Shown here piece by piece: positions 1,123 to 64,000 of a stretch of 64,000 bases of DNA. The notes beneath the pieces are model-generated. The model was not told where the DNA came from. It did not search any database and saw only the letters and a list, made by a program, of their open reading frames with translations. Position numbers and translations under genes: made by a program. Each line of letters begins with the position of its first letter. Within the stretch, counting starts at the first letter, position 1. Source of the DNA: a virus (Duplodnaviria > Caudoviricetes); IMG/VR virus record IMGVR_UViG_3300005739_000025; one strand, given 5' to 3'.

Positions 1123-1128
1123 TATTTA
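1123..1128 (-). promoter_or_regulatory. late promoter core TAAATA
   Basis: CTAAATA-8 nt-ATG(1114) on the minus strand. Confidence 0.6.
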
Positions 1129-1587
1129 GCACTTTTTAAAGCATTTTCTATATAAATTTAACAAATCTTCATCAGTAAATTTCATTTGTCTTAGAAAAGT
1201 TTCAATAAATCCTAAATCTTTAGAATTTAAAACTTGAATAACATCCGGGTCATCTTTCTTTTTTCCTAACTCTATCATTTTTTCTAAAATACCTTTTTTT
1301 AACAGAGTTAATTTTGAGTAGTTTGCACTTGTAACTTCTTGTGGTTGTTCATCTTCTACGGTTTCTATATTTGTTTTATTTACTGTTTGCACCGGATCAT
1401 AACCCGGTGGTATATTTACAATAAAGACCTTTAACTCATTACCAATATTTTCATGAAGTATATAACCCTCAAAATTAGGACTATTATAAAATCCTAATTT
1501 TTCAGCCCATAATGGATCAACCTTTATTCTTATCTTCTGTAACTTTTTATTTTCTAAAACATTTTTACAGATATTTAAAAATTTCAT
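1126..1587 (-). CDS. hypothetical late protein with capsid-targeting-like leader (MKFLNICKNVLE)
   Basis: ORF with ATAAATA 5 nt upstream. Confidence 0.55.
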   Translation of the reverse strand: MKFLNICKNVLENKKLQKIRIKVDPLWAEKLGFYNSPNFEGYILHENIGNELKVFIVNIPPGYDPVQTVNKTNIETVEDEQPQEVTSANYSKLTLLKKGILEKMIELGKKKDDPDVIQVLNSKDLGFIETFLRQMKFTDEDLLNLYRKCFKKC

Positions 1588-1592
1588 AATAT

Positions 1593-1626
1593 TATTTATT
1601 GAATTTTAGTGATTGAATATTATATT
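1593..1626. promoter_or_regulatory. divergent promoters: minus-strand late TAAATA (1593-1598) and plus-strand TTGAAT-N16-TATATT (1599-1626)
   Basis: Motifs read directly; they lie 5 nt and 7 nt from their respective ATGs. Confidence 0.55.
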
Positions 1627-1633
1627 ATAGTAT

Positions 1634-2284
1634 ATGAGTAAAAAGAAACTTCAGCATGCTAATCACAATATAGTTCATACATCAGAAGAAATAGAAGAGT
1701 TAATAACCAAAGGAGCCAAAGCATACGAAAATTATTTAGACGCTTTAGGGTTCGACTGGCGTAATGATCCTAATAGTGCGGATACCCCACATAGGGTAGC
1801 TAAAGCGTTTGTAACAGATCTGGCTATGGGTTGTTATACTGAACCACCAAAAGTGACGGCATTTGATAATGTTGATAGTTATGATGGCATGGTTTGCCAG
1901 AACAATATTAAGGTTGTTTCTTTATGCTCTCATCACCATGCACCTTTTATGGGTGTTGCTCATGTTGCTTATATCCCCTCTAAAAGTGGTAAAGTTATCG
2001 GACTATCGAAACTTAATCGAATTGTTGATTGGTTTGCCCGTCGTCCACAAGTTCAAGAAAATCTCACAATGCAGATTCATCAATATATTGATCAGGTTTG
2101 TGAGAAAAATAATGGGGTTGCAGTACTTATCGAAGCCAATCACACCTGCTGCTCTAATAGAGGTATTAAACATGATTCTACTATGAGAACAGCTAGAATG
2201 TCTGGTTCTTTTTTAGATAATAAAGATCAATCTAGAGCTGAGTTTTATAAGTTTGTAGAGTTTGCTCAAACCTGTAAGGGTTAA
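1634..2284 (+). CDS. folE: GTP cyclohydrolase I (FolE)
   Basis: Motifs [19 protein letters not shown] (Zn Cys/His), [20 protein letters not shown] and [11 protein letters not shown]. Confidence 0.95.
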
Positions 2285-2699: not shown

Positions 2700-2711
2700 T
2701 ATTTATAAATA
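2700..2711. promoter_or_regulatory. palindromic bidirectional late promoter TATTTATAAATA
   Basis: Perfect 12-bp palindrome giving TAAATA on each strand, exactly 5 nt from ATG 2694(-) and ATG 2717(+). Confidence 0.75.
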
Positions 2712-3253: not shown

Positions 3254-3741
3254 TCCTTTTTCTCTTCTTTTTCTTCTTGTGGAACTTCTGTATCCACGTA
3301 CTCCTTCATTATATTATCAATAAACTTTAAAACTTTACGAGCCTTTTTGGGTGGTATTTCTAATTCACCCAAATCTTCATCTAGGTTTTGATAATTATAA
3401 CGGTTAATAACGTTTACTAAATTTTCTTCAACCGCGGTAGCACTGTCTTCATCCAAACCTTTAAGATATTTGATTACTTTAAGTCTATCGTCATCGTCTA
3501 GATCTACTAAAAGAGCTTTAGCTATCATTCCAATTAAAAATGCATCTGATGAACTTCTTGTAGCGGGTGTTTCGACAGGTTGTTCTGTCTCTACAGAAGC
3601 AGGAGCCGGTGCAGCAGGTGGCATAGCTGGAACTGGAGCTGGAGCTGCGGCTAAACCCGCAGCAGGTTCACCATAAGGTGGAACTTGTTCTGTTAAAACA
3701 TACTTATAAGCTCTATTAAGCTCTTTAATAAAATTACTCAT
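3250..3741 (-). CDS. hypothetical late protein with Ala/Pro linker
   Basis: CTAAATA 5 nt upstream (3747-3752); leader MSNFIKELNRAYKYVLTE. Confidence 0.55.
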   Translation of the reverse strand: MSNFIKELNRAYKYVLTEQVPPYGEPAAGLAAAPAPVPAMPPAAPAPASVETEQPVETPATRSSSDAFLIGMIAKALLVDLDDDDRLKVIKYLKGLDEDSATAVEENLVNVINRYNYQNLDEDLGELEIPPKKARKVLKFIDNIMKEYVDTEVPQEEKEEKKD

Positions 3742-3749
3742 AATATTAT

Positions 3750-4250
3750 TTAGGTAGATATGTACTTTAAATTTTTAACATCTTCTAAAGTCTTTATTAA
3801 ACTATAATATTCTTCTTTATTAACGTACTTTCTTAACTTAGTAGTATCTCTATCTTTTAAGTAAAAGCTACTTATCTTTTCATTTAAGCCTGTAAATTCC
3901 CCGTTTTGTTTTATAAAAATGCTATCGTTTTGAACCATAATAAGAGGAATAGGTAACAGCCTTTTTAAATGTTTAAAAACTAACAAAAAGTTTTTTAAGT
4001 ATTTTTTTGAAGTAATATTCGATAAACTATCAGTGAAAACTACATAGACGGGCCTATTTTTTAACGTTTTATTTTTGCTTAAAGTTAGTATTTGCTCTAC
4101 AAAAAAGTGTAAAATTAATTTTTTGAGGTCTTTCTCTCTTAAGTCAGTTGGATTTAATCCCAAATTAAGTATATCAGCAAAAATATTAGTAGAAAATGAA
4201 GAGCAATCATAATAGACTATATTATGATTTTTAGCAGAATACTTTTTCAC
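3750..4250 (-). CDS. hypothetical protein, weakly reminiscent of a degenerate T4 RNase H N-terminal domain
   Basis: Start placed at GTG 4250, 6 nt below TTGTTA-N16-TATAAT. LKKLILHFFVEQIL...VYVVFTD pattern without the full acidic catalytic set. Confidence 0.3.
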   Translation of the reverse strand: MKKYSAKNHNIVYYDCSSFSTNIFADILNLGLNPTDLREKDLKKLILHFFVEQILTLSKNKTLKNRPVYVVFTDSLSNITSKKYLKNFLLVFKHLKRLLPIPLIMVQNDSIFIKQNGEFTGLNEKISSFYLKDRDTTKLRKYVNKEEYYSLIKTLEDVKNLKYIST

Positions 4251-4270
4251 CAACTAATTATATAATAATT

Positions 4271-4687
4271 TTACTCTTTAACAAGATTTTTTGGCGGCTT
4301 ACCAATTCTAACGTTAATTATACCGTTATAGTAGTTTTCATTTAATAAAACATCTCTACTTATTTGTTCTTTAATTTCCTCGTAGCTTAATTCCCATTTA
4401 GAACCACAAGTCTTTAATATTAAAAACTCAAAATTGTCTTTGCCGCACTTCTTAATGTCTTCATTTAAGTCATTTGAAGAGCCTGTATAAAATTTCCAGT
4501 CTGATTCTTTACTATCAATTCTATTTCTAAGTTTACCCTTTAAGGGTTTTCTTTTAATTTTACGTCTGCACTGTTTTTTACCGATGTAGGTTTTATTATT
4601 TGTAAGATTTTTTATACTGTAAATAAAACCAAAGCAGTCTTCGGTGAAGTCTAACCCATCTTTAATTTTCCAGTGCCCTAAGTCCAC
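4271..4687 (-). CDS. free-standing GIY-YIG family endonuclease-like protein
   Basis: GFIYSIKNLTNNKTYIGKK motif, ESDWKFYTGSS, and C-terminal YYN. Confidence 0.8.
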   Translation of the reverse strand: MDLGHWKIKDGLDFTEDCFGFIYSIKNLTNNKTYIGKKQCRRKIKRKPLKGKLRNRIDSKESDWKFYTGSSNDLNEDIKKCGKDNFEFLILKTCGSKWELSYEEIKEQISRDVLLNENYYNGIINVRIGKPPKNLVKE

Positions 4688-4954: not shown

Positions 4955-5347
4955 ATGTTGTTAGAAAACTATATAAAAGAAATTAAAGAGGATACTATAG
5001 TTAATGAGTTAAACTTAAAAGAAAAATCTCTATCTTTACCAGCGTTAAAAGCCAAATGGGTTGCAAGATTAATCAACCATAAAAATACTCTAAACGAGCT
5101 AGAAAAAAAGAAACGAATTTTAGTAAAAAGATTATTACCACAGGTAAAGGAATCTCTTCCTGTTAAACTTTCTGATAATCTAATTAAAGATGCTGCCGAA
5201 GATACTAAAGAAGTAGCTGAAATATCAGAAAAGATAAACGAACAGAAACAAATTATAGAATTTTTGGAAAGAACAGAAAAAGTAATGACGTCTTTTACCT
5301 ATGATATAGGTAATATTGTCAAAGTGATTCAACTAGAGACGTTATGA
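4955..5347 (+). CDS. uvsY: recombination mediator UvsY-like
   Basis: SLPALKAKWV...IEFLERTEKV..FTYDIGNIVKVIQLE coiled pattern; lies immediately upstream of uvsW. Confidence 0.75.
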   Translation: MLLENYIKEIKEDTIVNELNLKEKSLSLPALKAKWVARLINHKNTLNELEKKKRILVKRLLPQVKESLPVKLSDNLIKDAAEDTKEVAEISEKINEQKQIIEFLERTEKVMTSFTYDIGNIVKVIQLETL

Positions 5348-6798
5348 TAGAGTTAGATTACTGTAATACTAAGAATAAAGGTATCATTAAAGGTCCTTTA
5401 ATGAAAGAAATAAGAGAGTATTTCTCTGAAAAAAATGAAGCCGCTAAATTTTTAAGACATAGATTTAAATTTATACCACAAAGAAAATATGTTATAACAC
5501 CTACAGGTAGATTTAATGTCGGTTTAACATATGAGATTATTAGCTTTCTCAAAAACACATACCCACAAGAGAAATTTAACGTTACAAAAGACTTATTAAA
5601 TGTATCTACACCCAACTCGTGGTATGAATATTTTAAAAATAATTTGGATATCTTAAAATTAAACTTAAATCTTTACGATTATCAAGAAGATATAGTTAAA
5701 AGATGTTTAGTTTCTGGTCGTGGTACTATAGTTTTGGCAACTGCTGGTGGTAAGACTTTAATTACCTCATCGTTGATCAATCATGCGAGAAACACTCTCT
5801 ATAAAGATAAAAAATCCTTTAGATGTTTTGTTATTGTACCTTCTCTTTCACTAGTTGAGCAAACAATAGATAAATTTAATGAGTACGGGGTCAATTTTAC
5901 GTACTCAAAATGGACAGGCAACAATCAATTAAACTTAGGTACAGATGTTGTAGTGTGTAATTTAGGCATTTTACAAAGTAAAAACACAGACATAACCATA
6001 TTACAAAATATTGACCTACTTATTGTAGATGAAGTACACATGCTTAGACAGAGTAATAATTTTAATAAAATTATTGATGTTGTGGAAACACCTCACAAGT
6101 TTGGATTTACTGGCACGTTACCAGAATCTAATGTAGATAAATGGAATATTGTAGGTAGGGTTGGTCCATTGCTTTACGAGCGTAAGGGTTATGAGCTTAG
6201 AAAAAATAATTTCGTATCTAATGCACAAGTTTCTATCTTAGAGCTAAACTACAAAACAAGACCACCACAATCTCATAGCGTTATTGATAAGTATAGATCT
6301 GAATTAGAATTCTTAATTTTTAGCGAATACCGTAACAAAGTAATAAGTAAAGTATGCGACAACGCTAAAAATAATATCTTAATAATGGTAGATTATATTA
6401 GACATGGTGAAAAAATTTACAACATTCTTAAAGAAAATTTATCTGAAAGTAAAGAAATCTACTTTATTCAGGGCTCAGTTGATACTGATGTTAGAGAGAA
6501 AATTAGAAAAAAGATGGAATACAAAGATAATGTTGTGTGTATTGCCATATCAAAAATATTTTCAACAGGTATTGATATCAAGAATTTACATTATATAATT
6601 TTTGCAGGAGGTGGAAAAGCTAAAATAAAAATTTTACAAAGTATTGGACGTGGGTTGAGATTACATAAAAATAAAAACGTTTTTAGTATTATCGATATAC
6701 AAGATCAACTCCATTACAGCATTAACCACGGTAAAAAAAGAATAGAATTTTATGTACAAGAAAAAATCCCTTACCAAAAAACAACCCTCTCAGAGTAA
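5344..6798 (+). CDS. uvsW: SF2 DNA helicase UvsW
   Basis: LYDYQ, ATAGGKT, VDEVH, GFTGT, FSTGIDI and QSIGRGLR helicase motifs. Confidence 0.93.
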   Translation: MIELDYCNTKNKGIIKGPLMKEIREYFSEKNEAAKFLRHRFKFIPQRKYVITPTGRFNVGLTYEIISFLKNTYPQEKFNVTKDLLNVSTPNSWYEYFKNNLDILKLNLNLYDYQEDIVKRCLVSGRGTIVLATAGGKTLITSSLINHARNTLYKDKKSFRCFVIVPSLSLVEQTIDKFNEYGVNFTYSKWTGNNQLNLGTDVVVCNLGILQSKNTDITILQNIDLLIVDEVHMLRQSNNFNKIIDVVETPHKFGFTGTLPESNVDKWNIVGRVGPLLYERKGYELRKNNFVSNAQVSILELNYKTRPPQSHSVIDKYRSELEFLIFSEYRNKVISKVCDNAKNNILIMVDYIRHGEKIYNILKENLSESKEIYFIQGSVDTDVREKIRKKMEYKDNVVCIAISKIFSTGIDIKNLHYIIFAGGGKAKIKILQSIGRGLRLHKNKNVFSIIDIQDQLHYSINHGKKRIEFYVQEKIPYQKTTLSE

Positions 6799-7300
6799 AA
6801 AGTTAGACTCTGCTCCAGTGGTTGCTGAAGTTGCCGTTACTAAACGTAAGAAGAAAAAATCTGTATCAGATAAAGACCATTACGTTAATGGTAGAGAATT
6901 TGAAGATGCAATTAAGGGTTATTATTCTTCCGATAAAATTACAGCTTATCTAGGCGAAAGTTTGAGAAAAATAGCTGTCGGATTATCTTATGCTCCAAAC
7001 TTTATTAACTATTCCTTTAAAGACGACATGATCGGGGACGCAGTATTAAAAATGTATCAAGCATTAAAGCATAAAAAATTTAAATTAGATCATGGTTTTT
7101 CACCGTTTAGCTATTTCACAACCATTGCATTTCATGCATTTATATCTAGAATTAAAAAAGAGAAAAAGCACCATCAAGTTATAGAAGATTATAAAGAGAG
7201 ACAATATAATCTATTAATTAACTCTGATGAAGATATGAGATCTCATAGAGTTTATACTAAACCTAGCAATGTCGATCACGACATATATAATGAAGATTAA
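6752..7300 (+). CDS. gp55: late-transcription sigma factor gp55
   Basis: HYVNGREF, PNFINYSFKDDMIGDA and SPFSYFTTIAFHAFISRIKKEKK match the gp55 pattern; sits between uvsW and gp47. Confidence 0.88.
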   Translation: MYKKKSLTKKQPSQSKKLDSAPVVAEVAVTKRKKKKSVSDKDHYVNGREFEDAIKGYYSSDKITAYLGESLRKIAVGLSYAPNFINYSFKDDMIGDAVLKMYQALKHKKFKLDHGFSPFSYFTTIAFHAFISRIKKEKKHHQVIEDYKERQYNLLINSDEDMRSHRVYTKPSNVDHDIYNED

Positions 7301-8343
7301 TGAGTAATGCTAAATGGGCAGTCTTTACAGATCTGCACCTAGGGGTACATCAAAATAGCTCAGTATGGCATAAAATTGCTTTGGATTGGGTTGATTGGTT
7401 TGTAGCAGATTTAAAAGAAAAGAATATAAACCAAATTATATTCACTGGAGACTTTTTTCATTCTCGTTCTGAGATATCCGTTAATACTATACACGTAGCG
7501 GCAGAATTTTTAAGTAAGCTTAAAGGTTTTGATATAAAGATGGTTGTTGGTAACCACGACAGCTACTATAAACAAAAAGCAGAAGTACATTCCCTTTCTA
7601 TTCTATCTGGTTATTCCAATATAGAAATATTTGATAAAGTTTCTGTTATAGATATTAACGGTAAAAAGGCGACCTTCTGTCCTTGGGGGTTCGACTATGG
7701 TGATGTTAAGGATTGTGATATAATCTTTGGACACTTTGAGATTGAATCATTTAAGATGAATGCTCATAAGTTGTGTGAAGAAGGTTATAAACCTAAAGAT
7801 CTCTTAAAGAAAGCACCTTTAATATTCTCTGGCCACTTTCACTTAAACGAAGAGCGTGAATATGAAGAAGGTAAAATCATTTACGTTGGTAGTCCTTTCC
7901 AACTAGATTTCGGTGAAAGAGATTGTAATAAAGGTTATTATATTATTGACTTTAAAGATCTTTCCTACAATTATTTTACTAATAACAAAACACCAATACA
8001 TAAAAAACTATTAGTTTCTGAAATTATAAACGGGGAAGAGCTTAAAGAAGAATATAAAGAACTGATTAAAAATAACTTTGTAAAGATTGTTATAGATACA
8101 AATATTGAACAAAAAATCTTAGACAATATAATACATCTATGCAACAGTTATTCACCCTTGTCTCTCACTGTTGATCCCTTAGTAAACTATAATCTAACAA
8201 ATGATCAAGAAGGTACAGATCTTTCCGGTGTAGACATATCCAAAGCGATAGTAGAGTTTGTTAATCTTCTCGATATTAAAGAGAAAGAAGAAGTAACAAA
8301 ACATACATTATACCTTTACAACCAAGCATTAAAGCATGACTAA
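7300..8343 (+). CDS. gp47: Mre11/SbcD-like recombination nuclease gp47
   Basis: TDLHLG, GDFFH, GNHD, GHFE and SGHFH metallophosphoesterase motifs. Confidence 0.92.
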   Translation: MSNAKWAVFTDLHLGVHQNSSVWHKIALDWVDWFVADLKEKNINQIIFTGDFFHSRSEISVNTIHVAAEFLSKLKGFDIKMVVGNHDSYYKQKAEVHSLSILSGYSNIEIFDKVSVIDINGKKATFCPWGFDYGDVKDCDIIFGHFEIESFKMNAHKLCEEGYKPKDLLKKAPLIFSGHFHLNEEREYEEGKIIYVGSPFQLDFGERDCNKGYYIIDFKDLSYNYFTNNKTPIHKKLLVSEIINGEELKEEYKELIKNNFVKIVIDTNIEQKILDNIIHLCNSYSPLSLTVDPLVNYNLTNDQEGTDLSGVDISKAIVEFVNLLDIKEKEEVTKHTLYLYNQALKHD

Positions 8344-10141
8344 GAGAGTAAATTTTGAAAAGCTAGTTATAGAAAACTTTTTATCTATTGGAAATAAACC
8401 AGTAGAGATTAATTTTCGTTCTGGTTTACATGTTATAACCGGTATAAACAAAGACCAAGCTGATAGAAGAAATGGTATTGGTAAGAGTACGATATTGGAT
8501 GGTTTGAGTTTTGTATTGTTTGGCTCTACATTAAGAGAGCTTAAAAAAGAATTTGTAATAAACAATATTACAAAAAAGACTTCAAAGCTTACGTTAACGT
8601 TTTCTATTACTGAAAACAATGTAACAAATCACTACGAAGTTTTTAGATCAATAGAACCTAGTAAGTGTTATTTATACGAGAACGGTGTTGATATTACTCG
8701 TGACTCTATGGTTAATACTACAGAGTATATACAGAATATATTAAAACTTACTCCAGAAGTATTTCAAAACTGCATAGCTATGACGTTGAATAATATGATT
8801 CCGTTTATGGCTAAGAAAAAGATAGAAAAGAGAAAATTTATTGAAAGCATTTTTAATTTAGAAATCTTTAGCGAAATGAATAGCAATTTAAAAGTAGAAT
8901 TGCTCGAAGCTAAAAGAGAATTAGATATTAAAAATGGTAAGTATGAGGAGATTAAAAACTTCTTTAATGCACTCACCACACAAAACGAAAATAAAGAAAA
9001 AGAAAAACAAAGCAGAAAAGAAACTTTAAATAAACGACTTACAGATAATCAGAAAGAAATAGAACAAATTGATGCTAAAATCGATAAACACCAAAAATTA
9101 GATCTCACATCTGTTAAAGAAAAAATACAATTAGCTAACGAAAAGATTAATGAATTAACCACAAAGATTAATACCGTCGGTAAAGAAATTACATCGATAG
9201 AAACAAAAAGAGATTTTAGTAGATCATCCTTATTGAAGATTGGCACAGATAAAGAAACCTGTCCAGTATGTCTTAAACCGGTAACTGAAGCAGATAAGGA
9301 CCATATTAAAAATAAGAAAAAAACTTTTAATGATGAAATTAAGGCTTTTGAAAAAGATATTAAAGTGTTAGAAGAAAAACTTAATATTTACGAACAGTCT
9401 AAACATAAATTAAACGAAGCAGTTAATAAACTTAATGAAATCGTCAACAAGCAAAATGTTCAAAATGAACAGAAAAAACATTTCTTACAAAGAAGAAAAC
9501 AACTAGAAGATTACATTAAAGATATAGAAAAAGATTTAGAGGACTTAGATAAAACAAATACCGATTTTGGTAAGGCACTAAATGATCAAAAGGTAAAGTT
9601 AGATGATATAACAGCGGCATTAGAAAAAGACCGTCATAATATTAACATACTTGACTACGTAAAGTTCGTTTTAAGTGAAGATGGAGTTCGTAGTTATATT
9701 GTTAAGAAGATCTTGACTCTGTTTAATAACAAGCTATCACACTATCTTCGTAAGTTAAACTCTAATGCCTTTATAGCTTTTGATGAGTTCTTCGAAGAGA
9801 CTATAGTTAATAATAAAAACGTTCAAATGAGTTACTTCAATTATAGCGGTGCTGAAAAGAAAGTAATAGACCTTGCCATCATGTTTACATTTATAGAAAT
9901 GTTAAGATTACAAAGTGGTGTTATATATAATGTTCAGTTTTATGATGAGCTATTAGATACAAGTCTTGATGAAGCTGGTGTAGAGCTGGTTGTGTCATTG
10001 CTAAACGAACTCACCCAAACATTTGATTACGGTATATATATTATATCTCATAGGAAAGAATGCTCAAAACTCTCTACAGGAGACGTTATTTTCTTAGAAA
10101 AGAAGCAGGGTATAACTAAAAGAATACCCTTTGAAGGATAG
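8336..10141 (+). CDS. gp46: Rad50/SbcC-like ATPase gp46
   Basis: Walker A NGIGKS, coiled coil with CPVC zinc hook, signature YSGAEK, Walker B DELLD, ISH. Confidence 0.93.
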   Translation: MTKRVNFEKLVIENFLSIGNKPVEINFRSGLHVITGINKDQADRRNGIGKSTILDGLSFVLFGSTLRELKKEFVINNITKKTSKLTLTFSITENNVTNHYEVFRSIEPSKCYLYENGVDITRDSMVNTTEYIQNILKLTPEVFQNCIAMTLNNMIPFMAKKKIEKRKFIESIFNLEIFSEMNSNLKVELLEAKRELDIKNGKYEEIKNFFNALTTQNENKEKEKQSRKETLNKRLTDNQKEIEQIDAKIDKHQKLDLTSVKEKIQLANEKINELTTKINTVGKEITSIETKRDFSRSSLLKIGTDKETCPVCLKPVTEADKDHIKNKKKTFNDEIKAFEKDIKVLEEKLNIYEQSKHKLNEAVNKLNEIVNKQNVQNEQKKHFLQRRKQLEDYIKDIEKDLEDLDKTNTDFGKALNDQKVKLDDITAALEKDRHNINILDYVKFVLSEDGVRSYIVKKILTLFNNKLSHYLRKLNSNAFIAFDEFFEETIVNNKNVQMSYFNYSGAEKKVIDLAIMFTFIEMLRLQSGVIYNVQFYDELLDTSLDEAGVELVVSLLNELTQTFDYGIYIISHRKECSKLSTGDVIFLEKKQGITKRIPFEG

Positions 10142-10173
10142 TTGAAAGTTTTATTAAAGAAGTAAATAGATTT

Positions 10174-11412
10174 ATGTTTTTTCAAAAAAGTCCTATGATG
10201 ATGTCGCCGTTACAGCGTAACGCGCAAAAAATGACACCAACCTCTCCGATGATGCCAATGCAAGTGCCTGGAGCTCCGGGTCCGATGGTACCGCCAGAGA
10301 GCAATTTACCAAGAGCTATTCAATATTATGCTGATTATTCTGGTTGTGGTTTCTGGAGAATGATTTGGCCTGAACATATTATTAATGCTTATAATCATTG
10401 TACTGTTCATGGTAGTACAGTAATGTGTCTTGATCCCAGATGGTATGTTCAAGCTAAGGTTGTAAGAATACAAAGACAAGCAACAGAACATCAACTTCAA
10501 TTCGTTAAATTCCTTAAAGAAGTCCAAAGCCAAGTAGGATTCAGACTCATTTATGAAATCGATGATTTAGTATTCCATGAAGATATTCCCGAGTATAATA
10601 AATTTAAGCCAGCGTTTACTGATCCAAAGATCAGACAAAACATTTTGGAAATAATGAATCTCTGCGATGAAGTTACAGTAACTTGTCAATTCATGAAAGA
10701 TTATTATGAAGGTAAGACTGGACATAAAAATGTAACAATTATACCAAACTATCCACCAAAAATGTGGATTGGTAATCACTATGATCCTAAATGGATTTCA
10801 GATTCATATGATCAATTTCAAAGCAAGCCACGTATTTTATATGCTGGTTCTGGGGCACACTTCGACGTTGATAATAGAGTAGGTCAAAACGATGACTTTG
10901 CACACGTTATTAAAGCAATTGCTGACACAGTTGATAAGTTTCAGTGGGTGTTCCTCGGAGCATTTCCATTGCCGCTTAGACCTTTTGTTGAGTCTGGTAA
11001 AATAGAGTTTCACCCGTGGGTAAATCTCTACAACTATGGAGAAAAGATTAAAAACTTACGTATTAATATGATGGTTGCTCCATTACAGGACAACAACTTT
11101 AATAAATCTAAGTCAGATTTAAAATTAATTGAAGCTAATGCATTTGGTATTCCTATTGCATGTCAAAATCTTTGTACATATGAAGATGCACCATTTAAAT
11201 TTGATACAGGTGAAGAAATGATAGAGGTCGTTAAAGAAGTCTTAAGTAAGAAAGGTAGATATATGAATCTATCTGCAAAAGCTAGAGCTACAGCCAATAC
11301 AAGGTGGCTTGAGAACGAAGATAATCTTAAGGCCTATGTAGAGCTCTTTACCTTACCATGGGGCGACAAAAACAGAACTAAACTAAATGTTATTAACGGC
11401 ATTACCGTTTAA
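10174..11412 (+). CDS. putative glycosyltransferase (GT-B fold) with Met/Pro-rich N-terminus
   Basis: DYSGCGFWRMIWP, YEIDD, APLQDNNFNKSKSDLKLIEA; TAAATA lies 5 nt upstream (10163-10168). Confidence 0.75.
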   Translation: MFFQKSPMMMSPLQRNAQKMTPTSPMMPMQVPGAPGPMVPPESNLPRAIQYYADYSGCGFWRMIWPEHIINAYNHCTVHGSTVMCLDPRWYVQAKVVRIQRQATEHQLQFVKFLKEVQSQVGFRLIYEIDDLVFHEDIPEYNKFKPAFTDPKIRQNILEIMNLCDEVTVTCQFMKDYYEGKTGHKNVTIIPNYPPKMWIGNHYDPKWISDSYDQFQSKPRILYAGSGAHFDVDNRVGQNDDFAHVIKAIADTVDKFQWVFLGAFPLPLRPFVESGKIEFHPWVNLYNYGEKIKNLRINMMVAPLQDNNFNKSKSDLKLIEANAFGIPIACQNLCTYEDAPFKFDTGEEMIEVVKEVLSKKGRYMNLSAKARATANTRWLENEDNLKAYVELFTLPWGDKNRTKLNVINGITV

Positions 11413-12218: not shown

Positions 12219-12231
12219 AAAAATATATAAT
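12204..12231 (+). promoter_or_regulatory. sigma70-like promoter TTGAAT-N16-TATAAT for the DNA polymerase gene
   Basis: Motif read directly; 19 nt before the ATG, an exception to the short-leader rule. Confidence 0.55.
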
Positions 12232-12250
12232 TATCTAGTAATAAAAATCA

Positions 12251-14815: not shown

Positions 14816-14845
14816 TTTTTTAATTATTAAAATTAAATTAAACAT

Positions 14846-15199
14846 ATGAAGAAAATAATCCTATTCATTGATCACGTCGGTTACACTGTAGTAGCTGAAG
14901 AAGTTAGCTCTGATGAAAAGAGCCTTGTTGTAAAGAACCCATCAGTTCTCCAAGCATCGCCCAATAATCAAAACCAACTTCAAGTTCAGTTGTTGCCTGT
15001 GCTCTTTAAGGAGTTTGTTGATTCTTCAGTAAGAGGTAAGGGTGTTACATTTACTTATCCTAAGGATAAAATTGTTGTTTCTGACGCTGACTTAGATCAG
15101 AGACTTAAGCAACAATATGAGCAAATGTTTACTGATACACCAAATGCTCAAGGTGCTAAGCCCTCTGAAGAAGTAATCAAACTTTTTGACGACGAATAA
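14846..15199 (+). CDS. conserved T4-like hypothetical protein, possible Sm-like fold
   Basis: Beta-rich N-terminus, KNP, and LKQQYEQMF tail; located next to the polymerase gene. Confidence 0.45.
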   Translation: MKKIILFIDHVGYTVVAEEVSSDEKSLVVKNPSVLQASPNNQNQLQVQLLPVLFKEFVDSSVRGKGVTFTYPKDKIVVSDADLDQRLKQQYEQMFTDTPNAQGAKPSEEVIKLFDDE

Positions 15200-15200
15200 G

Positions 15201-15228
15201 TTGAAATACAGAAATACTACTATATACT
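15201..15228 (+). promoter_or_regulatory. sigma70-like promoter TTGAAA-N16-TATACT
   Basis: 7 nt before the uvsX ATG. Confidence 0.65.
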
Positions 15229-15235
15229 TTCTTGT

Positions 15236-16294: not shown

Positions 16295-16313
16295 TTCGAA
16301 ACCAAATACGCGG

Positions 16314-16348
16314 CCGCGTAGTCGGGTAACTGGCTACGCGGTTTTTTT
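16314..16348 (+). terminator. Rho-independent terminator after uvsX
   Basis: Stem CCGCGTAGTC / GGCTACGCGG (one G-U pair), 8-nt loop, then T7. Confidence 0.85.
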
Positions 16349-16349
16349 A

Positions 16350-16377
16350 TTGCATTATTAAAATAATTTTATATAAT
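16350..16377 (+). promoter_or_regulatory. sigma70-like promoter TTGCAT-N16-TATAAT
   Basis: Only 5 nt before the thyX ATG, implying a leaderless transcript. Confidence 0.7.
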
Positions 16378-16382
16378 TCATT

Positions 16383-17036: not shown

Positions 17037-17050
17037 ATATATAATAAGTT

Positions 17051-48771: not shown

Positions 48772-48822
48772 ATAGTTATTTATATTACCAGGTATAAAAA
48801 ACTAATAGTCATAAATAATTTT

Positions 48823-49293
48823 ATGTCATCTATAGTAATTGATACCCTTAAAGTGAAAGATAAGGGTAAACCTATTTATGTTGATATTGAGCTGGATTTA
48901 AAGCAAAATTACGCTAAAAGTCCTAGATTAAACAGTAAAAACGTTTTAAAAGATTTAGTAGCTTCTTTTGATGTAGATGCGGTAAAAAATAGCTTATTCA
49001 ATCTATTTACTACCATACCCGGACAAAAGATTTTAAATCCTATTTATGGTTTGAACCTTTTACAATTTGTTTTTACAGGTATAACTGAAATAAACGCAAA
49101 CTTAATGGGCAATTTAATTTTAGAGGGTATTAATAAATTTGAACCGAGATTAGAAGTTAAAAAGATTTTTATTTTTCCAGATATAGAAAATCAAACTTAT
49201 GAAATTGGTCTTAGATTAGATGTACCTTCGTTAAATATATTAGGTATTACCTTACAGGGTAAACTATCAGAATCAGGATTTTATTTTAACTAA
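48823..49293 (+). CDS. gp25: baseplate wedge protein gp25
   Basis: AVKNSLFNLFTTIPGQKILNPIYG, KFEPR. Confidence 0.9.
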   Translation: MSSIVIDTLKVKDKGKPIYVDIELDLKQNYAKSPRLNSKNVLKDLVASFDVDAVKNSLFNLFTTIPGQKILNPIYGLNLLQFVFTGITEINANLMGNLILEGINKFEPRLEVKKIFIFPDIENQTYEIGLRLDVPSLNILGITLQGKLSESGFYFN

Positions 49294-49295
49294 AA

Positions 49296-51170: not shown

Positions 51171-51172
51171 TA

Positions 51173-54100
51173 ATGATAAGCTTAACAGGTGTAAAGATAA
51201 AAACTACCACTTATCCGGATTTTGCGGCTATACAAAGTTTTTTTAGTTATACTTTGTCAAATACTCCATTTTATTTTAAATTACAGTGGGTTTCTAATGA
51301 TGAAAATTATAGAAACTTATTTAGTAGAAATCAAATTTTATGGGATTTTGGTGATGGTGAGTTTTACGTAGGTGAGACAGCAGAACATTATTACAAATGG
51401 CCTGGGTCGTATTTGGTTACAGCCACAATTTATGATGTAGAGGGTAATACCTACACCCTACAAGTAGATAATTTTTTACAAGTTTATAATGCTGTTCCTG
51501 ATTTGGTATCTATAGGAGATCTTGGAGGGTCAGTAGCATATCCTATTGAAGCGGGTAAAAAAACCCCACCTCTAAAAATTTTTAGAAGCAATAGCTGGCA
51601 ATATGATAGCTTTTTAAATGGAAAAAATTATACTGTTAATTTATACGCCTCAGGTTGTAGAAGCAATTTTATAAGTGTAAGTTCATATTATTCTAATTCT
51701 TGGTCACATCTTAAAACATATTTTGGCTTTATTGAAACAACGGTTAATGTTAATAATATTTTAGAAGATAAAATAATTGATTCCACAACAACAACAAGCG
51801 CTAGCGTTTATGCTGAGAGAATTAACACAGGGTTTATTAACAATAGCTGGGATGTAAAATTAAAATTTTACAGTTATCCAGAAAAAAATACAGTTTTTTG
51901 TGGAACGACCGGAGCTCTTTCAAACGATAAAATATTAACATTTGTAGATCAAAGAGCTAATCTTGACAACATTTATAGTTTTGATATTTTATACGCATCT
52001 TTTGACTCTACCATTTTTAAAGATGCAAATTATTTAAAATATAATTATAATTCAGATGACCCCTATGGTTTTATAAACTATCCTTACACAGCTCAATTTA
52101 TCAAGTCTTTATTCAATCCTGCTACAGGTATAAAAATAACATCCAACGGCATTTCTGTAGAAGGTCCTGTAGAAGAATCAAATGATAGATTTCAAAGAAA
52201 CTATTCATTTGATATATACCCTATAAAATATACCGATTCTAAAATAAATTTTGTATGCACATTTAAAGATAAAGACAATTTTACAACAAAATGCTATCCA
52301 CCTTTAAAATTAAATCAAAATAAAGCATTAGAATTAAACGACATAAGAGTTACATTAATGGAATATAATGGCATCTCTTCCACGCCAATTACCGGTGTAA
52401 ATATATATAAAAACATTGATATACCCGATTATAATAATAGTGGTAGCTATTTTGCTGGGATATTAGAAAGCAAAGAAGAAAGGTCAGTTGTAGCATTATC
52501 AGCTATATCTTACATAGTAGATGAGGCTTATACACTTCCAACATTAAACTATGGCTATATAATGCAGCCAGGTTTAAATCAATTTAGGAGAATAAAAAAT
52601 GAATTTAATTACGGTTATTATAACAATTCAGAAAAATTTAAAACTGGTGTAAAAAGTAAATTAGACACCTATAAAGCAAATGTTAGCGGCGGTGTAAACA
52701 TCACTTACGCGCCTTTGTTTATAAAAGACCCCTTATCGGGAGGATTTGTATGGATAACAAACAGTGCCAATGATTCATTACTATTATTTGACACGGAGGG
52801 TCAACAAAAAGGTATAGTGTTTTTTAGAAGATTGAGGGTTTTTAGACCTAGTCCGTCCGGCATAGGCGGATCAGCCCCTATTATAAATGCATTGGGGGAT
52901 AATAGAAGTGCTTCACCCTGTAATATCGCTATTGATAGCAACGGTGATGCTTGGGTTACCTTAAGAGATACAATTACTTCATTTAAGCTGGATAAAAATA
53001 CTTTGATTGCTACTAAAGTGATAATACCCTCAGTCAAAAGCTTTCCATTTTACAGTAGTGATACAGATTATCTTTCTTTATGTGGTTTTGCGGGTGAAGA
53101 TTCTGTTTTACCTTCTAGTATAGATGTAGATAGAAATGACAATGTTTATATTTCTTACACAAATACACTTTGCAGCTTTATAGCAAAATATGACAAAGAT
53201 GGGAAAGAATTGTTAAAAATTCCATTTTTATTCCCGTACACAATAAAACAACTATTAATTGACACAGAAAATAATATTTGGGCTACCTCTTTTAATAACG
53301 CGGGTTTATTAGACGAATTAAACGTTCCCCAAACAACGAATATTGTTAATAGAGTAGATTTACTATATTATATAGATCAAAAAAATCCGCTAAACAACTT
53401 TGTTAAAAGATTTTCAATGTTAGGCGACCTAACAATGGATAGTGGTGGTAACGTTTGGGTCAACAGTCAAAACAATACTATTAACAGAATAACAAAAGAT
53501 GGCAATGTAATAAGTTTTTTAATGGGTAACCCTGAAAGTGTAACCGATTATATTCAAGATTTTGGAGGGCTGGCCGGAGATTTGGATGGAAATCTTTGGG
53601 TAATAAACAATTCAGAAGGATTAATACAATTTTTTGATACAAAAAATCCTCGACAGCTTGATCCATCAGATTACAGTAGCACTATAATACCTGGTATTTT
53701 GCCAGCAATTGTATTACCGGATACATTTAAAACCGTATCCGAGGAAGGTACCTTTGCATATTACCAGACTATTGGTGATTTTACAGGTATTAGATGGGCG
53801 TTAAAAAATAGAGTGAGAACAACGACCGCCCCGAGAATTGTTACAGGTACAAGTAATTACTTTACAATTAGAAAACCTGAATCTATAGTAGTAAAGAAAA
53901 ACGAAAATTATGATTTAGCTACCACAATAAGAAGTTATGCTTTACAGGAATCGCTATATAATAGTACAGACTTTTTTAATAATTTTTTAACCCCAATACT
54001 TAACGGTAATACAGGTAATGTTGATGAATTGGGTAAAGTCATATACGAAAAAATTACCAATTTTGTTGATAATAATTCTGATATAGACAAATGCAATCTA

Positions 54101-57700: not shown

Positions 57701-59137
57701 TTTACTAAAATACCAGAATATACATTACAATTATCGACTAATTTACCAGGTACATCAGCCTTTACAATAGATGGTAAAATATCTTGTGGTAACACGTGTT
57801 CAGCTATATACTTAGACGGTGACTTTGCTATATTATCAGCAACTAAAGCTCCTGCAGGCTATTTCTTCGAAGGATTTAAAGGAGGTCCATGCGGTGGTAA
57901 CAACCCTTGTGGTCTGCCAATGACTCAAAACTACTATTTAACCGCTACTTATCTTTCTGGCAATTCAGAAATATTACTTACTAAAGATTTTAATGGTTTA
58001 GAATATGGTCCTATATTAGGTAGAATAAACAATGTAGCTATTGAATTATTAGATTCTAACGAGAATACCGTATGTTACAATGATGGTCCATATGACTTTG
58101 GCTCTATTGTATGTTCACTATCACCGTCGTTGGAAATTTATGGGTTTAAGACTATTGTAGCGCCTAGAAACGAATTTGTTTTAATTTCTGCAAATATAAT
58201 GGCACCTTATGTTTTGGAAAAGTACGAAGGTTCGCCCTGTCAAAACTTTACAGATGTTTGCGGATTTTTTGCAGAAACTAATACATATAACATTACCGCG
58301 TTTTTAAATGCACCAATTTATACAATTAATATTCTAAATTCTGGTAGTGGTCTTTTTTATACACAATCAACAGATGGTAATATAAATTGCGGATCACTAA
58401 GTTTAGCAAACTTTAGAGATAAATGTGCGTTTAGTTATTTATCAGGTACTATGATAACCCTGTCAGGTATTGCTTTAGGCGCTTCTAAAATGATACAATT
58501 AAATGCGGAAGATTATGTATCATATGCTTCAAACTTAGTTACTGGAGATCAAGAATTACAGTTAACTTTTCCTGTAACTAAAAATTTAGCAGTAACAGCT
58601 GCCGGGGTAGGAAATACCTTTAGAACTTTAACAATTATTAAATCAGGTTTCAATACTCTCACCACCGCCTACAACGATGCAATAGTAACAATAGATAATT
58701 ATGGTGAATTGATTAATGTAAACTCAGGCGTTTCGGCTCAAACGTTTAATTTTATAGATACTTCAGAGTTAAAATTATTTCCAAGATTTACCCCGGCCTC
58801 AAATAATTATCTTTATACAATTGGTTCTTCTGCGCTTTATTATATTTTATCTTCCGGTCCGGGATTAGTTTTTTCTGACGGTAACCCGATAACGGTATTT
58901 CAATCAGACACCGTTTTATCAAATAGTTTGTTTAATTTAATACCTAACCCTGGTAATTTTCCTCTATTTGTAAATAGTATTGATGCGTACGTTACTTTTT
59001 CTAATCCGGTAACATATGTTACTATGACAGAACCAATAACAGCTATTTTTGTTTATTCAGACGCTGGACGTCTAGTAACAGAAGAAAATATTGACTTAGA
59101 TATTCTAACAGAAAGATTACAGTTAATATATATATAA
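54743..59137 (+). CDS. very large baseplate/fibre protein with divergent InlB B-type repeats
   Basis: TAAATA 6 nt before the second ATG (54743); C-terminal repeats K.GTG.G.V.S....I.CG..C...F.GW.G.PC....C.......TA.F. Confidence 0.65.
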   Translation: MSDYSKALLFKSSGPATFLNWLELQETVSPNFSVNLKNYQSYIKEWGVLKNSKKGSSDKFFSDLYINLLREITLNFSTEEERRFIVNFDFTKTDNLDTILPFFIEKIKSICLYYCGKRDKLKQKISLLPFKGTTFSVQKAIKTIILEDIESGNVLKFAEGRVNFPSLSSINKNLSVKVEEIYDSTDYFNTNTVYENVSSYGFNEIDPNLYIDFKESIINAINQYPLFLTNIRNSLSLSYNLSGNELYYLKERDFLNYIFSLSSEDLKLNLKQKLAPKYASCDFYYLSVGSTINDIFSGVLFTTKPLTGANTQNLSNRDKSAFATVQSLDQIYTTYEMGKFFIPSNTGVLQYNTIDKKIAINYKKLSPNGVYVFPDPGVVESSDLDYPIIYRVNLSWNKESLESGFKLGDVISNSYYQRFYPYESYSQDVVNQPYGLSLAKDNVDFWNGEKDSVWTDSDLWPGLNEIESLPLDTRLNSLLQDKGFLTEWYTDIYGNEFGLYKRVSENENIFNKRKFIQGDLYVKNSLTGLVSSANHFFNNIFLKYPTEIQKELFNKHLSFYLIKNVFVVETENYVIVDSYNFEFSTGKFLNTLLPGIYIPKYTINSNLEKYINSYYVESTNKLYLCFVKLLPSLSASNYKNVYPTIYELDVDSLEFKQKYPGLQLDVSIHTLSSFKYDNFPEVDIRYIEGAKFSYKEKFNLFNLTYCGYNLNGIPFYINEQFSISDGSGDIVSYFPILNKPYFYTRDINFSNPNPDYKFRFTGNYSEPAGFNDLENFNFDKLNIDYNNFHYNTKVNPVFINIPGSHYVHFDFDQYIFGNVYIGCENLKVTKIDNFNFLEFITEQNDLTSLRISSDEIWYKVRNYSFNNYTFSLSVLRPKNTNGAVLKFNASTSLSGFSGVFCKNLYSVYRNVKIVKSGTGNGIVTSDPFCLDCGNLCEFLYPINGTLTLIPSAGFRSVFGGWLGAPCQGLASNCFLAITDNTTITAIFTKIPEYTLQLSTNLPGTSAFTIDGKISCGNTCSAIYLDGDFAILSATKAPAGYFFEGFKGGPCGGNNPCGLPMTQNYYLTATYLSGNSEILLTKDFNGLEYGPILGRINNVAIELLDSNENTVCYNDGPYDFGSIVCSLSPSLEIYGFKTIVAPRNEFVLISANIMAPYVLEKYEGSPCQNFTDVCGFFAETNTYNITAFLNAPIYTINILNSGSGLFYTQSTDGNINCGSLSLANFRDKCAFSYLSGTMITLSGIALGASKMIQLNAEDYVSYASNLVTGDQELQLTFPVTKNLAVTAAGVGNTFRTLTIIKSGFNTLTTAYNDAIVTIDNYGELINVNSGVSAQTFNFIDTSELKLFPRFTPASNNYLYTIGSSALYYILSSGPGLVFSDGNPITVFQSDTVLSNSLFNLIPNPGNFPLFVNSIDAYVTFSNPVTYVTMTEPITAIFVYSDAGRLVTEENIDLDILTERLQLIYI

Positions 59138-61840: not shown

Positions 61841-61865
61841 TTTTTATTATAAATAAATATATTAT

Positions 61866-63719
61866 ATGTCCCAAGGTATTAAAATTTCTCAATTAACAGG
61901 CGGTGGTAGTGCGCTTGAAGGTGATACAATACCTATTGCAAGAGGTGGCAATACCTTTAAACTTACTGTAGGTGATATAGCAGGTTCTTTAACCGCAGCA
62001 AGCAACTCAATAAAGGGTAATCCCACTTTATCTCTTGCAAAGGCAGTAGATATAGTCTTATCACCCCATAGCATACTTGCAAGAACTAGCTCAACAATAG
62101 AAAATTTAATTGCAGAAACTAATACAGTTTTATGTAGACTTGATGCTAACTCAACTTTAGCTTTTAGATCATTTACAGGAGATTTAATTCAAAATAATAC
62201 AATATCTAATACAAAATTATCACAAGCACCTGCTTATACCATAAAGCTTAATAACACGGGAAATACCGCAAACGTTGGCGATTTTGCTATAGCAGATAAT
62301 TCCGTTTTAGTAAGAAGTGGTAATTTTACTAGTTTAGTTGCTGGTAATAATACCATACTAAGAAGACTTGGTGGTACCTCTACCTTAGAGTTTGGTCAGG
62401 TTACAACAGATTTAATTGATAACAATGCCATAACTTCTGATAAATTAAATATCGGGTCTGTAACAAATAATGCTATAACTGACAATACAATTTCCGGTAA
62501 TAAACTTGTAGCAAACTCAGTTAATTTAGATAGAATTCAGCAAATAACCGGTCAATCTGTTTTAGGAAACGTTGGTACTGGATTGGGCAATATTGGTGCG
62601 GTAAAAGTTACACCAGGTTTGCTGTCAACAGGAGGCCCTTCATGGAATACGTTAGGCGATTTAACACCCTCATCTGGTAAATTAATAGGCAATGCAGATA
62701 CAGCTACAAGTTTGCAAACTGCTAGAAATATTACTGTTGGAGGTACTAGTAGATCGTTTGATGGGTCTAGTAATATTTCATGGACATTAGATAATATTAT
62801 TCAAGGACAAGCAGATATATTAGCATTTAATAATGGAGGGTTTGGAACTGTTACAACAAGAACAGATGGAACTTATAAGTATTACATTTTTAAAGTTAAT
62901 GATTCTATAAGTGATTTTACATGGATACAAGCAGGTTTTTTAGTTATAACAAACTGTATATCTATACCTGTAGAGTTATTTTTAGTAGGAGGAGGGGGTG
63001 GAGGAGGTTCTAGGCTCTATGCTGGAGGTGGAGGAGGGGGTGACGCGCGATTTTTTTATGGCGTTTTAGGAGCGAATACTTATGTTGCTAATGTGGGTTG
63101 TGGTGGTTTTGGAGGTGGTCGTCGTTTTTCAAACCCAACAACGATCGAGTACATGCCAGGTGAAAATGGTGGTCCTACTGAATTTGCTGGTTATACCGTA
63201 TTGGGTGGTGGAGGTGGAGGATCTTCTAATGATAACGTTACAGCTATGAATGGCACACCTAGCATGGGTCGTCCGGGTGGTAGTGCAGGTGGTGCTAGTG
63301 GTTATGCGCCATATTTCCTACCAAGCAGTATAGGTTTTGGTACACGAGGTGGTAGAGGTGGGTTATATGGCGGAGGAGGTGGTGGAGGTGCTCTTTCCCC
63401 AGGAGATTCCGGGACAAATAGTGTAGGGGGTAGAGGTGGTGAAGGTAACACAAGTAACCGAGAAACAGGTAGTGATTTAGTCTACGGATCGGGTGGAGGT
63501 GGGGGTGGTTATAGTAATAGTGGCGGCAACAATAATTGGGGACTTGGTGGTACAAGAGCAGGTAGAGGTGGTGGTAATAATCAAGCTCCATTAAATGGTG
63601 TAAATTCTTCGGGTGGTGGAGGGGGTGGTGCAAATAATTTGGGTCCTGGTGGTACCGGTGGACACGGCATTATAGTAGTTAGGATAAATAATATACACAT
63701 TAAATCATCAAATATATGA
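61866..63719 (+). CDS. tail fibre protein B with a glycine-rich C-terminal domain
   Basis: N-terminus paralogous to fibre A; LFLVGGGGGGG and GSGGGGG glycine-rich tip; late promoter upstream. Confidence 0.75.
   Translation: MSQGIKISQLTGGGSALEGDTIPIARGGNTFKLTVGDIAGSLTAASNSIKGNPTLSLAKAVDIVLSPHSILARTSSTIENLIAETNTVLCRLDANSTLAFRSFTGDLIQNNTISNTKLSQAPAYTIKLNNTGNTANVGDFAIADNSVLVRSGNFTSLVAGNNTILRRLGGTSTLEFGQVTTDLIDNNAITSDKLNIGSVTNNAITDNTISGNKLVANSVNLDRIQQITGQSVLGNVGTGLGNIGAVKVTPGLLSTGGPSWNTLGDLTPSSGKLIGNADTATSLQTARNITVGGTSRSFDGSSNISWTLDNIIQGQADILAFNNGGFGTVTTRTDGTYKYYIFKVNDSISDFTWIQAGFLVITNCISIPVELFLVGGGGGGGSRLYAGGGGGGDARFFYGVLGANTYVANVGCGGFGGGRRFSNPTTIEYMPGENGGPTEFAGYTVLGGGGGGSSNDNVTAMNGTPSMGRPGGSAGGASGYAPYFLPSSIGFGTRGGRGGLYGGGGGGGALSPGDSGTNSVGGRGGEGNTSNRETGSDLVYGSGGGGGGYSNSGGNNNWGLGGTRAGRGGGNNQAPLNGVNSSGGGGGGANNLGPGGTGGHGIIVVRINNIHIKSSNI
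61874..62615 (+). repeat. copy 2 of the ~740-bp imperfect direct repeat
   Basis: See copy 1. Confidence 0.9.
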
Positions 63720-63970
63720 TAGTCAAAGATTATATCAACGTTATTTTAAATGATGTTTCTGTTGTCGGAGCTGGCTGGTCCCACATAAAAAGAAGAAGAG
63801 ATTTCATTTTACAGTTAACAGATTGGACTCAAAGTGCCGATAGCCCGTTATCTGAAGAGTTAAAAGAAAAATATAGAATATACAGAAAAGAACTTAGAGA
63901 GTTACCCCAAAAATATCCAAACCCCGACGATGTAATTTGGCCTGTTTCCCCTACTGATAAATACATATAA
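63716..63970 (+). CDS. tail fibre assembly chaperone-like protein
   Basis: RRDFIL..TDWTQSADSPL...YRKELRELPQ....P..VIWPVSP. Confidence 0.85.
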   Translation: MIVKDYINVILNDVSVVGAGWSHIKRRRDFILQLTDWTQSADSPLSEELKEKYRIYRKELRELPQKYPNPDDVIWPVSPTDKYI

Positions 63971-63988
63971 GTTGTTAAATAATATTAT

Positions 63989-64000
63989 ATGCTTTTCAAC
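63989..64000 (+). CDS. start of a late gene cut off by the window end
   Basis: TTAAATA 7 nt before ATG CTT TTC AAC. Confidence 0.35.

Follow-up and report, generated by a model that had tools for sequence, protein, structure and literature searches.

Promoters placed next to start codons, and a candidate leaderless mode of gene expression, in an uncultured T4-like phage

Genes and start-adjacent promoters of the window

The window analyzed here is a 64,000-nt stretch of the IMG/VR virus record IMGVR_UViG_3300005739_000025 (Duplodnaviria; Caudoviricetes), in which promoters of two classes lie only a few nucleotides before many start codons and in which Shine-Dalgarno (SD) sequences are missing. 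It is the reverse strand of bases 70423-134422 in this record, which has 148,804 bp, a G+C content of 32%, and a completeness of ~70%. The T4-type core genes in the window are those for DNA polymerase, a UvsW-like helicase, gp46/47, the large terminase, the tail sheath and tube, and baseplate wedge proteins; UvsX, UvsY, a single-strand DNA-binding protein (SSB), primase, ThyX, and dUTPase are also encoded. The DNA polymerase shares no more than 32% identity with those of Kyanoviridae, the core proteins are ~30% identical to those of Pelagibacter phage HTVC008M, and a megablast of the phage DNA against phage records gave no match. Judged by these comparisons, the phage is related only distantly to any cultured phage. 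The five public runs listed as holding parts of the phage sequence (each 5-8% of its words) are freshwater metagenome DNA, and no RNA run carrying phage sequence was among the public runs listed by the run search.

Layouts were counted over 148 open reading frames (ORFs) of the whole record, with the other ATGs of the same genome as controls. Gene models were the longest ORFs, and each start was taken mechanically as the first ATG, GTG, or TTG after a stop. The late layout was scored as TAAATA ending 4-9 nt before the start; the early layout was scored either loosely, as TTG-N15-19-TAnnnT ending 4-9 nt before the start, or strictly, as TTGAnn-N16-18-TATAAT with at least 5/6 matches; and the SD core was scored as GGAG, GAGG, or AGGA at -18 to -5. 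A more general promoter pattern, TTGnnn-N16-18-TAnnnT (at least 4/6 matches), was dropped as too permissive (467 sites vs 450 in shuffles), and the stricter patterns and start-anchored rates were used.

The late layout is present at 31.1% of ORF starts vs 0.39% of other ATGs, an 80-fold difference. When only the first start of each ORF is counted, the distance d between box and start is 5 nt in 20 cases, 6 nt in 13, 7 nt in six, and 8 nt in five. Within the window, TAAATA-N5/6-ATG occurs 22 times vs ~6 in dinucleotide shuffles (whose maxima at the two spacings were 9 and 7), and in the whole record 36 times vs ~15. The 46 start codons of this class comprise 42 ATG, four GTG, and no TTG, all beginning with a purine. 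The TAAATA core is invariant in the set because the set was selected on it; the box is extended to ATAAATA in 31/46, the base before that A varies, and no position further upstream is conserved, the -35 position included. Late boxes head the terminase, sheath, tube, baseplate wedge, and tail fibre genes as well as small unknown genes, and are absent from the starts of replication genes.

All fifteen late starts named in the preliminary description of this DNA are first start codons of long ORFs and are preceded by TAAATA at a distance of 5 or 6 nt. Six of them face one another across divergent spacers. In the 22-nt spacer 2695-2716, opposed and overlapping TAAATA boxes at 2700-2705 (-) and 2706-2711 (+) each stand 5 nt from an ATG (2694, -; 2717, +). 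The 35-nt spacer 33541-33575 holds one box for the gene starting at 33540 (33546-33551, -) and one for the large terminase gene starting at 33576 (33564-33569, +), while in the 51-nt spacer 48772-48822 the boxes at 48777-48782 (-) and 48812-48817 (+) are each 5 nt from their ATGs (48771, -; 48823, a baseplate wedge gene). On the plus strand, TAAATA-N5-ATG precedes the tail sheath gene (35937-35950; start 35948), the tail tube gene (38379-38392; start 38390), and the glycosyltransferase-like gene 10174-11412 (10163-10176); TAAATA-N6-ATG precedes the genes 39032-39913 (39020-39034) and 61866-63719 (61854-61868); and TAAATA-N5-GTG precedes the gene 40703-42124 (40692-40705). On the minus strand, five bases separate the box at 1593-1598 from ATG 1587 (1585-1598), the box at 3747-3752 from ATG 3741 (3739-3752), and the box at 20554-20559 from ATG 20548 (20546-20559). 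The first of these lies in a 46-nt divergent spacer shared with the early promoter of 1634, and the TAA of the second is the stop codon of the upstream gene 3750-4253. Such a double use of the TAA of the box as the upstream stop codon is found at nine junctions (gap = spacer + 3): at 3750-3752, at 59135-59137, and at seven outside the window. Five additional late-box starts in the window have the box at 6-8 nt, namely 29965, 32619 (-), 4914 (-), 59148, and 63989; at 32619, the hairpin of an intrinsic terminator (32665-32641) and its T-run are followed by the late box (32626-32631), six bases, and the ATG (32617-32665, -).

The early class consists of sigma70-type promoters. By the loose pattern, the early layout is found at 14.2% of ORF starts vs 1.13% of other ATGs (13-fold), and by the strict pattern at 6.8% vs 0.17% (40-fold); the modal distance from the -10 hexamer to the start is d = 6. 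Strict sites end 5-9 nt before ten starts (1634, 4955, 15236, 20585, 22582, 28486, 30366, 31208, 46785, and one outside the window), for which the chance expectation is estimated at ~0.2, and these ten sites have the canonical sigma70 features: a TTGACA-like -35, a 16-18-nt spacer, and a TATAAT-like -10. Looser -35 boxes precede 16383, 17051, 19044, 24436, and 4250. The preliminary description had listed eleven early starts, that is, all of those just named in the window except 17051, 19044, and 22582, and for every one a -35/-10 pair was recovered whose end lies 5-9 nt from the start. Its correction of one start, from the mechanical TTG 4253 to GTG 4250, fits the promoter pattern, TTG 4253 being the sole TTG of the early class. 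Early promoters head the genes for GTP cyclohydrolase I, UvsY, UvsX, ThyX, QueC, SSB, primase, and dUTPase.

The two best sigma70 matches within 14000-33900 (both 11/12) are those preceding the primase start GTG 28486 (TTGATA-N16-TATAAT, 5 nt; 28453-28488, +), the best of the early region, and GTG 30366 (TTGAAA-N16-TATAAT, 6 nt; 30332-30368, +). Also on the plus strand, TTGAAA-N16-TATACT stands 7 nt before the uvsX ATG 15236 (15201-15238), TTGACG-N17-TATACT 6 nt before ATG 31208 (31173-31210), TTGAAT-N16-TATATT 7 nt before the GTP cyclohydrolase I ATG 1634 (1599-1636), and TTGATA-N16-TACATT 6 nt before the SSB ATG 24436 (24402-24438), whereas TTGATT-N16-TATAAT occurs twice, 8 nt before ATG 20585 (20549-20587) and 6 nt before the dUTPase ATG 46785 (46751-46787). 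On the minus strand, TTGTTA (4284-4279) and TATAAT (4262-4257), 16 nt apart, lie 6 nt before GTG 4250 (4248-4284). The thymidylate synthase gene is preceded on the plus strand by a terminator with a 14-bp stem (16312-16343), whose T-run leads into the -35 TTGCAT (16350-16355), a 16-nt spacer, the -10 TATAAT (16372-16377), 5 nt, and ATG 16383 (16312-16385). Compact cassettes of terminator, promoter, and start codon of this kind, in which the -35 lies in or right after the hairpin and the T-tract serves as the promoter spacer, were noted at 16312-16385 and before uvsX in L055-L093.

Missing Shine-Dalgarno sequences and the internal cistrons

The SD core is found at 4.1% of ORF starts vs 5.4% of control ATGs. 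The G content at -15 to -1 is only 5-14%, and the predicted pairing with the anti-SD is weaker at gene starts than at control ATGs. When the same crude gene models are applied to T4 and HTVC008M, SD sequences are recovered at 41.5% and 42.4% of starts, respectively, with the usual G peak at -10 to -7. Genome-wide scoring thus bears out both the earlier claim that SD sequences are missing upstream of these starts and the accompanying statement that T4 itself uses SD-led mRNAs. A rare good SD, GGAGG 8 nt before ATG 45408 (45390-45410), belongs to an internal gene with a -1 stop/start overlap. Outside the window, two large genes (G000:C1:138566-141271 and 48123-51407) have a similar G-rich context ending in GGGTCA before the ATG, and no promoter box.

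Start-adjacent promoters, at 4-9 nt, are present at 67 of the 148 ORFs (45%), 46 of them late and 21 sigma70-type. Among ORFs without a tight junction to an upstream gene, the share rises to ~71% in the record; in the window it is 34/43. A coupled class, with stop/start overlaps and no promoter box, accounts for 53/148 ORFs (36%). A second count gives 54 internal cistrons that have neither a box nor an SD; the commonest gaps to the upstream gene are -4 (15 cases), -1 (10), +1 (six), +2 (four), -8 (four), and +4 (three), and in 42 of the 54 the start lies within -8 to +4 nt of the upstream stop. The SD-less operon 5344-10141 (+), which encodes a helicase, gp55, and gp47-like and gp46-like proteins, has gaps of -4, -47, -1, and -8. 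Consequently, the architecture had been overstated as near genome-wide: it fits ~45% of genes and ~70-80% of first cistrons, another 36% of genes being internal cistrons. The latter are probably translated by termination-reinitiation; as downstream, SD-less cistrons, they would be entered by ribosomes that reinitiate after terminating at ATGA, TAATG, and similar junctions.

Conservation, start-site geometry, and competing explanations

Both promoter layouts recur in related phages. In tube gene orthologues at 43-77% identity, TAAATA-N5-ATG is kept in all, and the five spacer bases vary; tube orthologues at 24-27% identity have leaders with AAGGAG. In a more distant T4-like contig (L016), the tube gene has TAAATA followed by an 18-nt leader with AAGGAG, and TAAATA is therefore plainly a promoter in that lineage. 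In uvsX orthologues at 46-51% identity, TTGAC-N16/17-TAT(T/A)AT-N6/7-ATG is kept, with the -35 embedded in a terminator hairpin, and in the group at 68-71% identity uvsX is an internal cistron without an SD. The two complete relatives, G001 (229.7 kb) and G002 (225.8 kb), have the SD at 14% and 6.5% of starts (near background), the late layout at 21% and 9.7%, and the early layout at 16% and 13.6%, respectively. The same trends are seen in ~90 related, short contigs that come from many samples. In T4, HTVC008M, and a T4-like contig used as an outgroup (G005), the SD is present at 40-42% of starts and the early layout is missing. T4, with a G+C content of 35%, has no TAAATA-start distance below d = 9, and HTVC008M has a lower late peak, formed by 11 starts at exactly d = 5.

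The spacings themselves indicate where transcription may start. A sigma70 promoter favors the seventh base after the -10 hexamer as the start, i.e., a 6-nt spacer, and in the early class with d = 6 this base is the purine of the start codon. In late genes with d = 5, the sixth base past the box is the start-codon purine in 20/20 and the -1 base is T in 16/20; in those with d = 6, the sixth base past the box is A in 8/13. The intergenic distance is only 21-51 nt in ten divergent gene pairs of the window, and the 22-nt spacer 2695-2716 is too short for a leader and a ribosome-binding site in either direction. The starts 16383 and 32619 have terminators that end 13-32 nt upstream; the one at 32619 ends 21 nt from the ATG with only the late box between, so that the promoter must lie within ~20 nt of the ATG.

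The commonest spacers, 5 nt behind the late box and 6 nt behind the -10, match the position at which each promoter type is known to start transcription. Leaderless or near-leaderless mRNAs are therefore the best reading of the layout, and we put the probability that first cistrons are leaderless or nearly so at roughly 0.7. In this model, the first gene of most transcription units would be expressed from an mRNA in which 0-3 nt precede the start codon. Genes of the early and middle classes (replication, recombination, and nucleotide metabolism) would rely on host promoters of the sigma70 type, with the -10 ending 5-8 nt ahead of the ATG or GTG, and late genes would use (A)TAAATA, read by host RNA polymerase with the phage gp55 homologue. 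Only 5-6 nt separate the late box from the start, so that transcription would initiate with the start-codon purine. Of the leaderless architecture as first proposed, the two promoter classes, their spacing, and the lack of SD sequences have thus held up as real, conserved, and absent from T4, while transcription starting on the start codon keeps the standing of a prediction. From the sequence we infer the transcription start sites, the loading of ribosomes on a 5' AUG, and the coupling of downstream cistrons.

Several observations, however, weigh against a leaderless interpretation. The 13 late genes with 7-9-nt spacers would be left with leaders of 1-4 nt, and leaders of 1-4 nt lower leaderless translation in Escherichia coli. 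Fifteen late boxes lie within an upstream gene or run across its end, and nine share its stop TAA; the spacing of the late box could therefore partly reflect intercistronic packing. Sigma70-like matches are overall no commoner than in shuffles (89 vs 92), only their placement beside starts being non-random. There are also exceptions, namely the DNA polymerase gene at 12251 (-10 at 19 nt), 14846 (12 nt), and 54740 (3 nt), and the gene models are mechanical longest ORFs. Finally, T4 late transcription uses the gp55 sigma, the gp33 co-activator, and the gp45 sliding clamp (PMC2988020, PMC7892883), but with HTVC008M and T4 queries neither gp33 nor the gp45 clamp gave a tblastn match in the ~70%-complete record, G001, or G002. 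A Pfam DNA_PPF search gave no match anywhere, the controls included, and PHROG scans of 10 unknown ORFs revealed neither gp33 nor a clamp. A homologue of the clamp loader gp44 is encoded at 47231-48166. As to the DNA polymerase gene, the 32-nt spacer 12219-12250 is common to it and to a divergent gene starting at 12218 (-), and the -10 at 19 nt predicts a 12-13-nt, SD-less leader.

Another explanation is one in which the promoters are real but give leaders of a few to ~15 nt, or in which read-through from upstream dominates and translation is SD-independent, as in Bacteroidota and some cyanobacteria. The spacers do span 5-9 nt, and -10 boxes do lie 12-19 nt upstream of 12251 and 14846. Furthermore, read-through must exist where late boxes lie inside operons, as many do, and internal cistrons are evidently translated SD-less. 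At 16383 and 32619, however, terminators just upstream exclude read-through, and divergent spacers of 21-22 nt leave no alternative start sites. In addition, the Bacteroidota -7 motif TAnnTTTG is not enriched: it occurs 13 times within 120 nt upstream of the 148 starts vs 16.8 expected, with no positional peak. This explanation is thus considered unlikely.

Several results indicate that TAAATA works at the level of DNA. Inside genes, by comparison with synonymous-codon shuffles, TAAATA is the most depleted of the 15 A4T2 hexamers in both orientations, with depletion in coding sequence of 0.63 on the sense strand (z -7.0) and 0.67 on the antisense strand (z -6.6). Avoidance of a signal read in RNA would be limited to the sense strand, whereas that of a promoter would extend to both; consequently, the near-equal depletion on both strands argues for a DNA-level promoter. 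The expected reader of the boxes, a homologue of the late sigma gp55, is encoded at 6752-7300 (+), where tblastn gives 43% identity to gp55 of HTVC008M (E 2e-21) and 31% to that of T4 (E 1e-8), and gp55 homologues are present in 5/5 relatives tested. These results bear on the proposal that TAAATA is instead an AU-rich substitute for the SD in the mRNA, used in an SD-independent host on longer polycistronic transcripts that start further upstream. Its tight spacing to the ATG does resemble that of a ribosome-binding site, another initiation signal might be expected in a genome without SD sequences, and the 15 boxes in or at the end of an upstream gene, with the nine shared stop codons, would be accommodated as well. 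Yet avoidance is equal on the antisense strand, the box occurs only at virion and late starts, not at the 54 internal cistrons or the early genes, the unrelated bipartite sigma70 promoters share its geometry, a gp55 homologue is encoded, and in the distant relative L016 the box is followed by a leader that has an AAGGAG of its own. An SD substitute is accordingly improbable. Two-strand avoidance, the gp55 homologue, the specificity for the late class, the box plus leader in distant relatives, and the same geometry in the sigma70 promoters all point the same way, to TAAATA as a putative promoter rather than a ribosome signal.

That the layouts are by-products of AT-rich sequence and of how ORF starts are picked was tested and can be rejected: even though TAAATA- and TATAAT-like words are common at 32% G+C and sigma70-like matches overall equal those in shuffles, enrichment over other ATGs is 80-fold (late) and 13-40-fold (early), starts were picked mechanically, orthologues keep the layout, T4 at 35% G+C shows none of it, and neither shuffled AT-rich controls nor internal ATGs, a comparison set beforehand, reproduced the distance peak at d = 5-6.

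Relation to known systems, the host, and accessory genes

T4 is the textbook model of phage gene expression, with messages that carry SD-bearing leaders. Its late octamer, TATAAATA, is placed roughly one turn of the helix ahead of the start site (PMC2988020), and the P23 promoter oligonucleotide of a cryo-electron microscopy structure consists of TATAAATA, five bases, and then G (PMC7892883). The phage described here shares with the T4 late system the core box TAAATA, the lack of a conserved -35, an AT-rich spacer, a gp55 homologue, and the presence of the box on virion genes. It differs in that an SD leader follows the box in T4, where 12-30 nt separate the box from the start codon, whereas here the distance is 5-6 nt and no SD is present; in addition, the T that opens the T4 octamer is not conserved here, and gp33 and gp45 were not found in the ~70%-complete record. 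HTVC008M, one of the pelagimyophages (PMC7029224), is likewise an aquatic phage of the T4-like kind, encodes a gp55 homologue (43% identical), and has TAAATA-N5 at 11 starts, but it uses the SD (~42%) and has no start-adjacent sigma70 promoters above background. Late-promoter prediction failed in pelagimyophage genomes (PMC7029224).

Leaderless expression by phages is already known. By 5'-end mapping, transcripts are mostly leaderless in the Thermus phages phiYS40 (as stated in the passage of PMC3594737 that cites Sevostyanova 2007) and Lalka27a (bioRxiv 10.64898/2026.04.20.719267), and leaderless genes are common in the phylum of their hosts (PMC12340547). They too are large and lytic, and most of their transcription units start on the A or G of the start codon, with a -10-type element adjoining the ORF. 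However, they are RNA-mapped, are not T4-like, and have another late promoter (TAGGGT in Lalka27a), whereas the present layout is known from sequence alone. In Actinobacteria and Deinococcus-Thermus, leaderless genes have a -10 TANNNT directly before the ORF (PMC4633059, PMC12340547), which resembles the -10 element found here 5-8 nt before an ATG or GTG with no SD; unlike here, where the SD is at or below background in every gene class, their leadered and internal genes keep it. A search of the literature on leaderless transcription with T4-like late promoters, gp55, cyanophages, and SAR11 revealed no description of the layout for T4-type phages. What would set the present case apart is the combination of a gp55 late system and host-type early promoters at the starts, the latter canonical sigma70 rather than of the Bacteroidota type, with the absence of the SD even internally.

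If the leaderless reading is correct, the T4 late-transcription machinery is compatible with leaderless expression, and a large, widespread clade of uncultured freshwater T4-like phages fuses host-type and gp55-type promoters to start codons without the SD. It would also offer an easy way to correct gene starts and to locate late promoters in metagenomic genomes of this kind, in which SD-reliant gene callers will misplace starts. The question is then raised of how ribosomes reach such messages and whether the phage tilts translation its way.

A Bacteroidota host was considered on account of the missing SD and discarded, as Bacteroidota-type promoters are not used; a SAR11-type host was set aside because HTVC008M uses the SD. 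Scans of genome contigs with an RmlD-like protein and with S21, made in search of a host, yielded no relative. Because canonical sigma70 early promoters suggest an ordinary host, and such hosts normally use the SD, one may speculate that the lack of SD sequences is a takeover strategy of the phage clade rather than a host trait, with the ribosome shifted away from SD initiation by S21, as encoded in the relative G001, or by a factor acting on the anti-SD or IF3. Every phage message would then be leaderless or coupled by reinitiation, and SD-led host mRNAs would be out-competed. We regard this idea as unlikely. A homologue of ribosomal protein S21 (67 residues; L135:1474-1677, -; 28 bits, above the Pfam cut-off) is encoded by G001, the closest complete relative, whose uvsX is 70% identical. 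The relatives found for this S21 are metagenomic proteins only, and it may bear on SD-independent initiation. Neither S21 nor IF3 was found when sought in the ~70%-complete record itself.

Other genes of the window include a heme oxygenase (17778-18368) and a ferredoxin-dependent bilin reductase (18361-19023), which overlap as a pair. The nearest Atlas cluster of the bilin reductase is mostly viral. Such pigment genes are typical of cyanophages but are also found in phages of other hosts, and consequently they do not settle the host. The window also contains genes for GTP cyclohydrolase I (1634-2284), a QueC-like protein (17051-17773), and an amidotransferase-like protein (19044-19700). Together, these three suggest a 7-deazaguanine (queuosine-type) pathway, which might possibly serve DNA modification.

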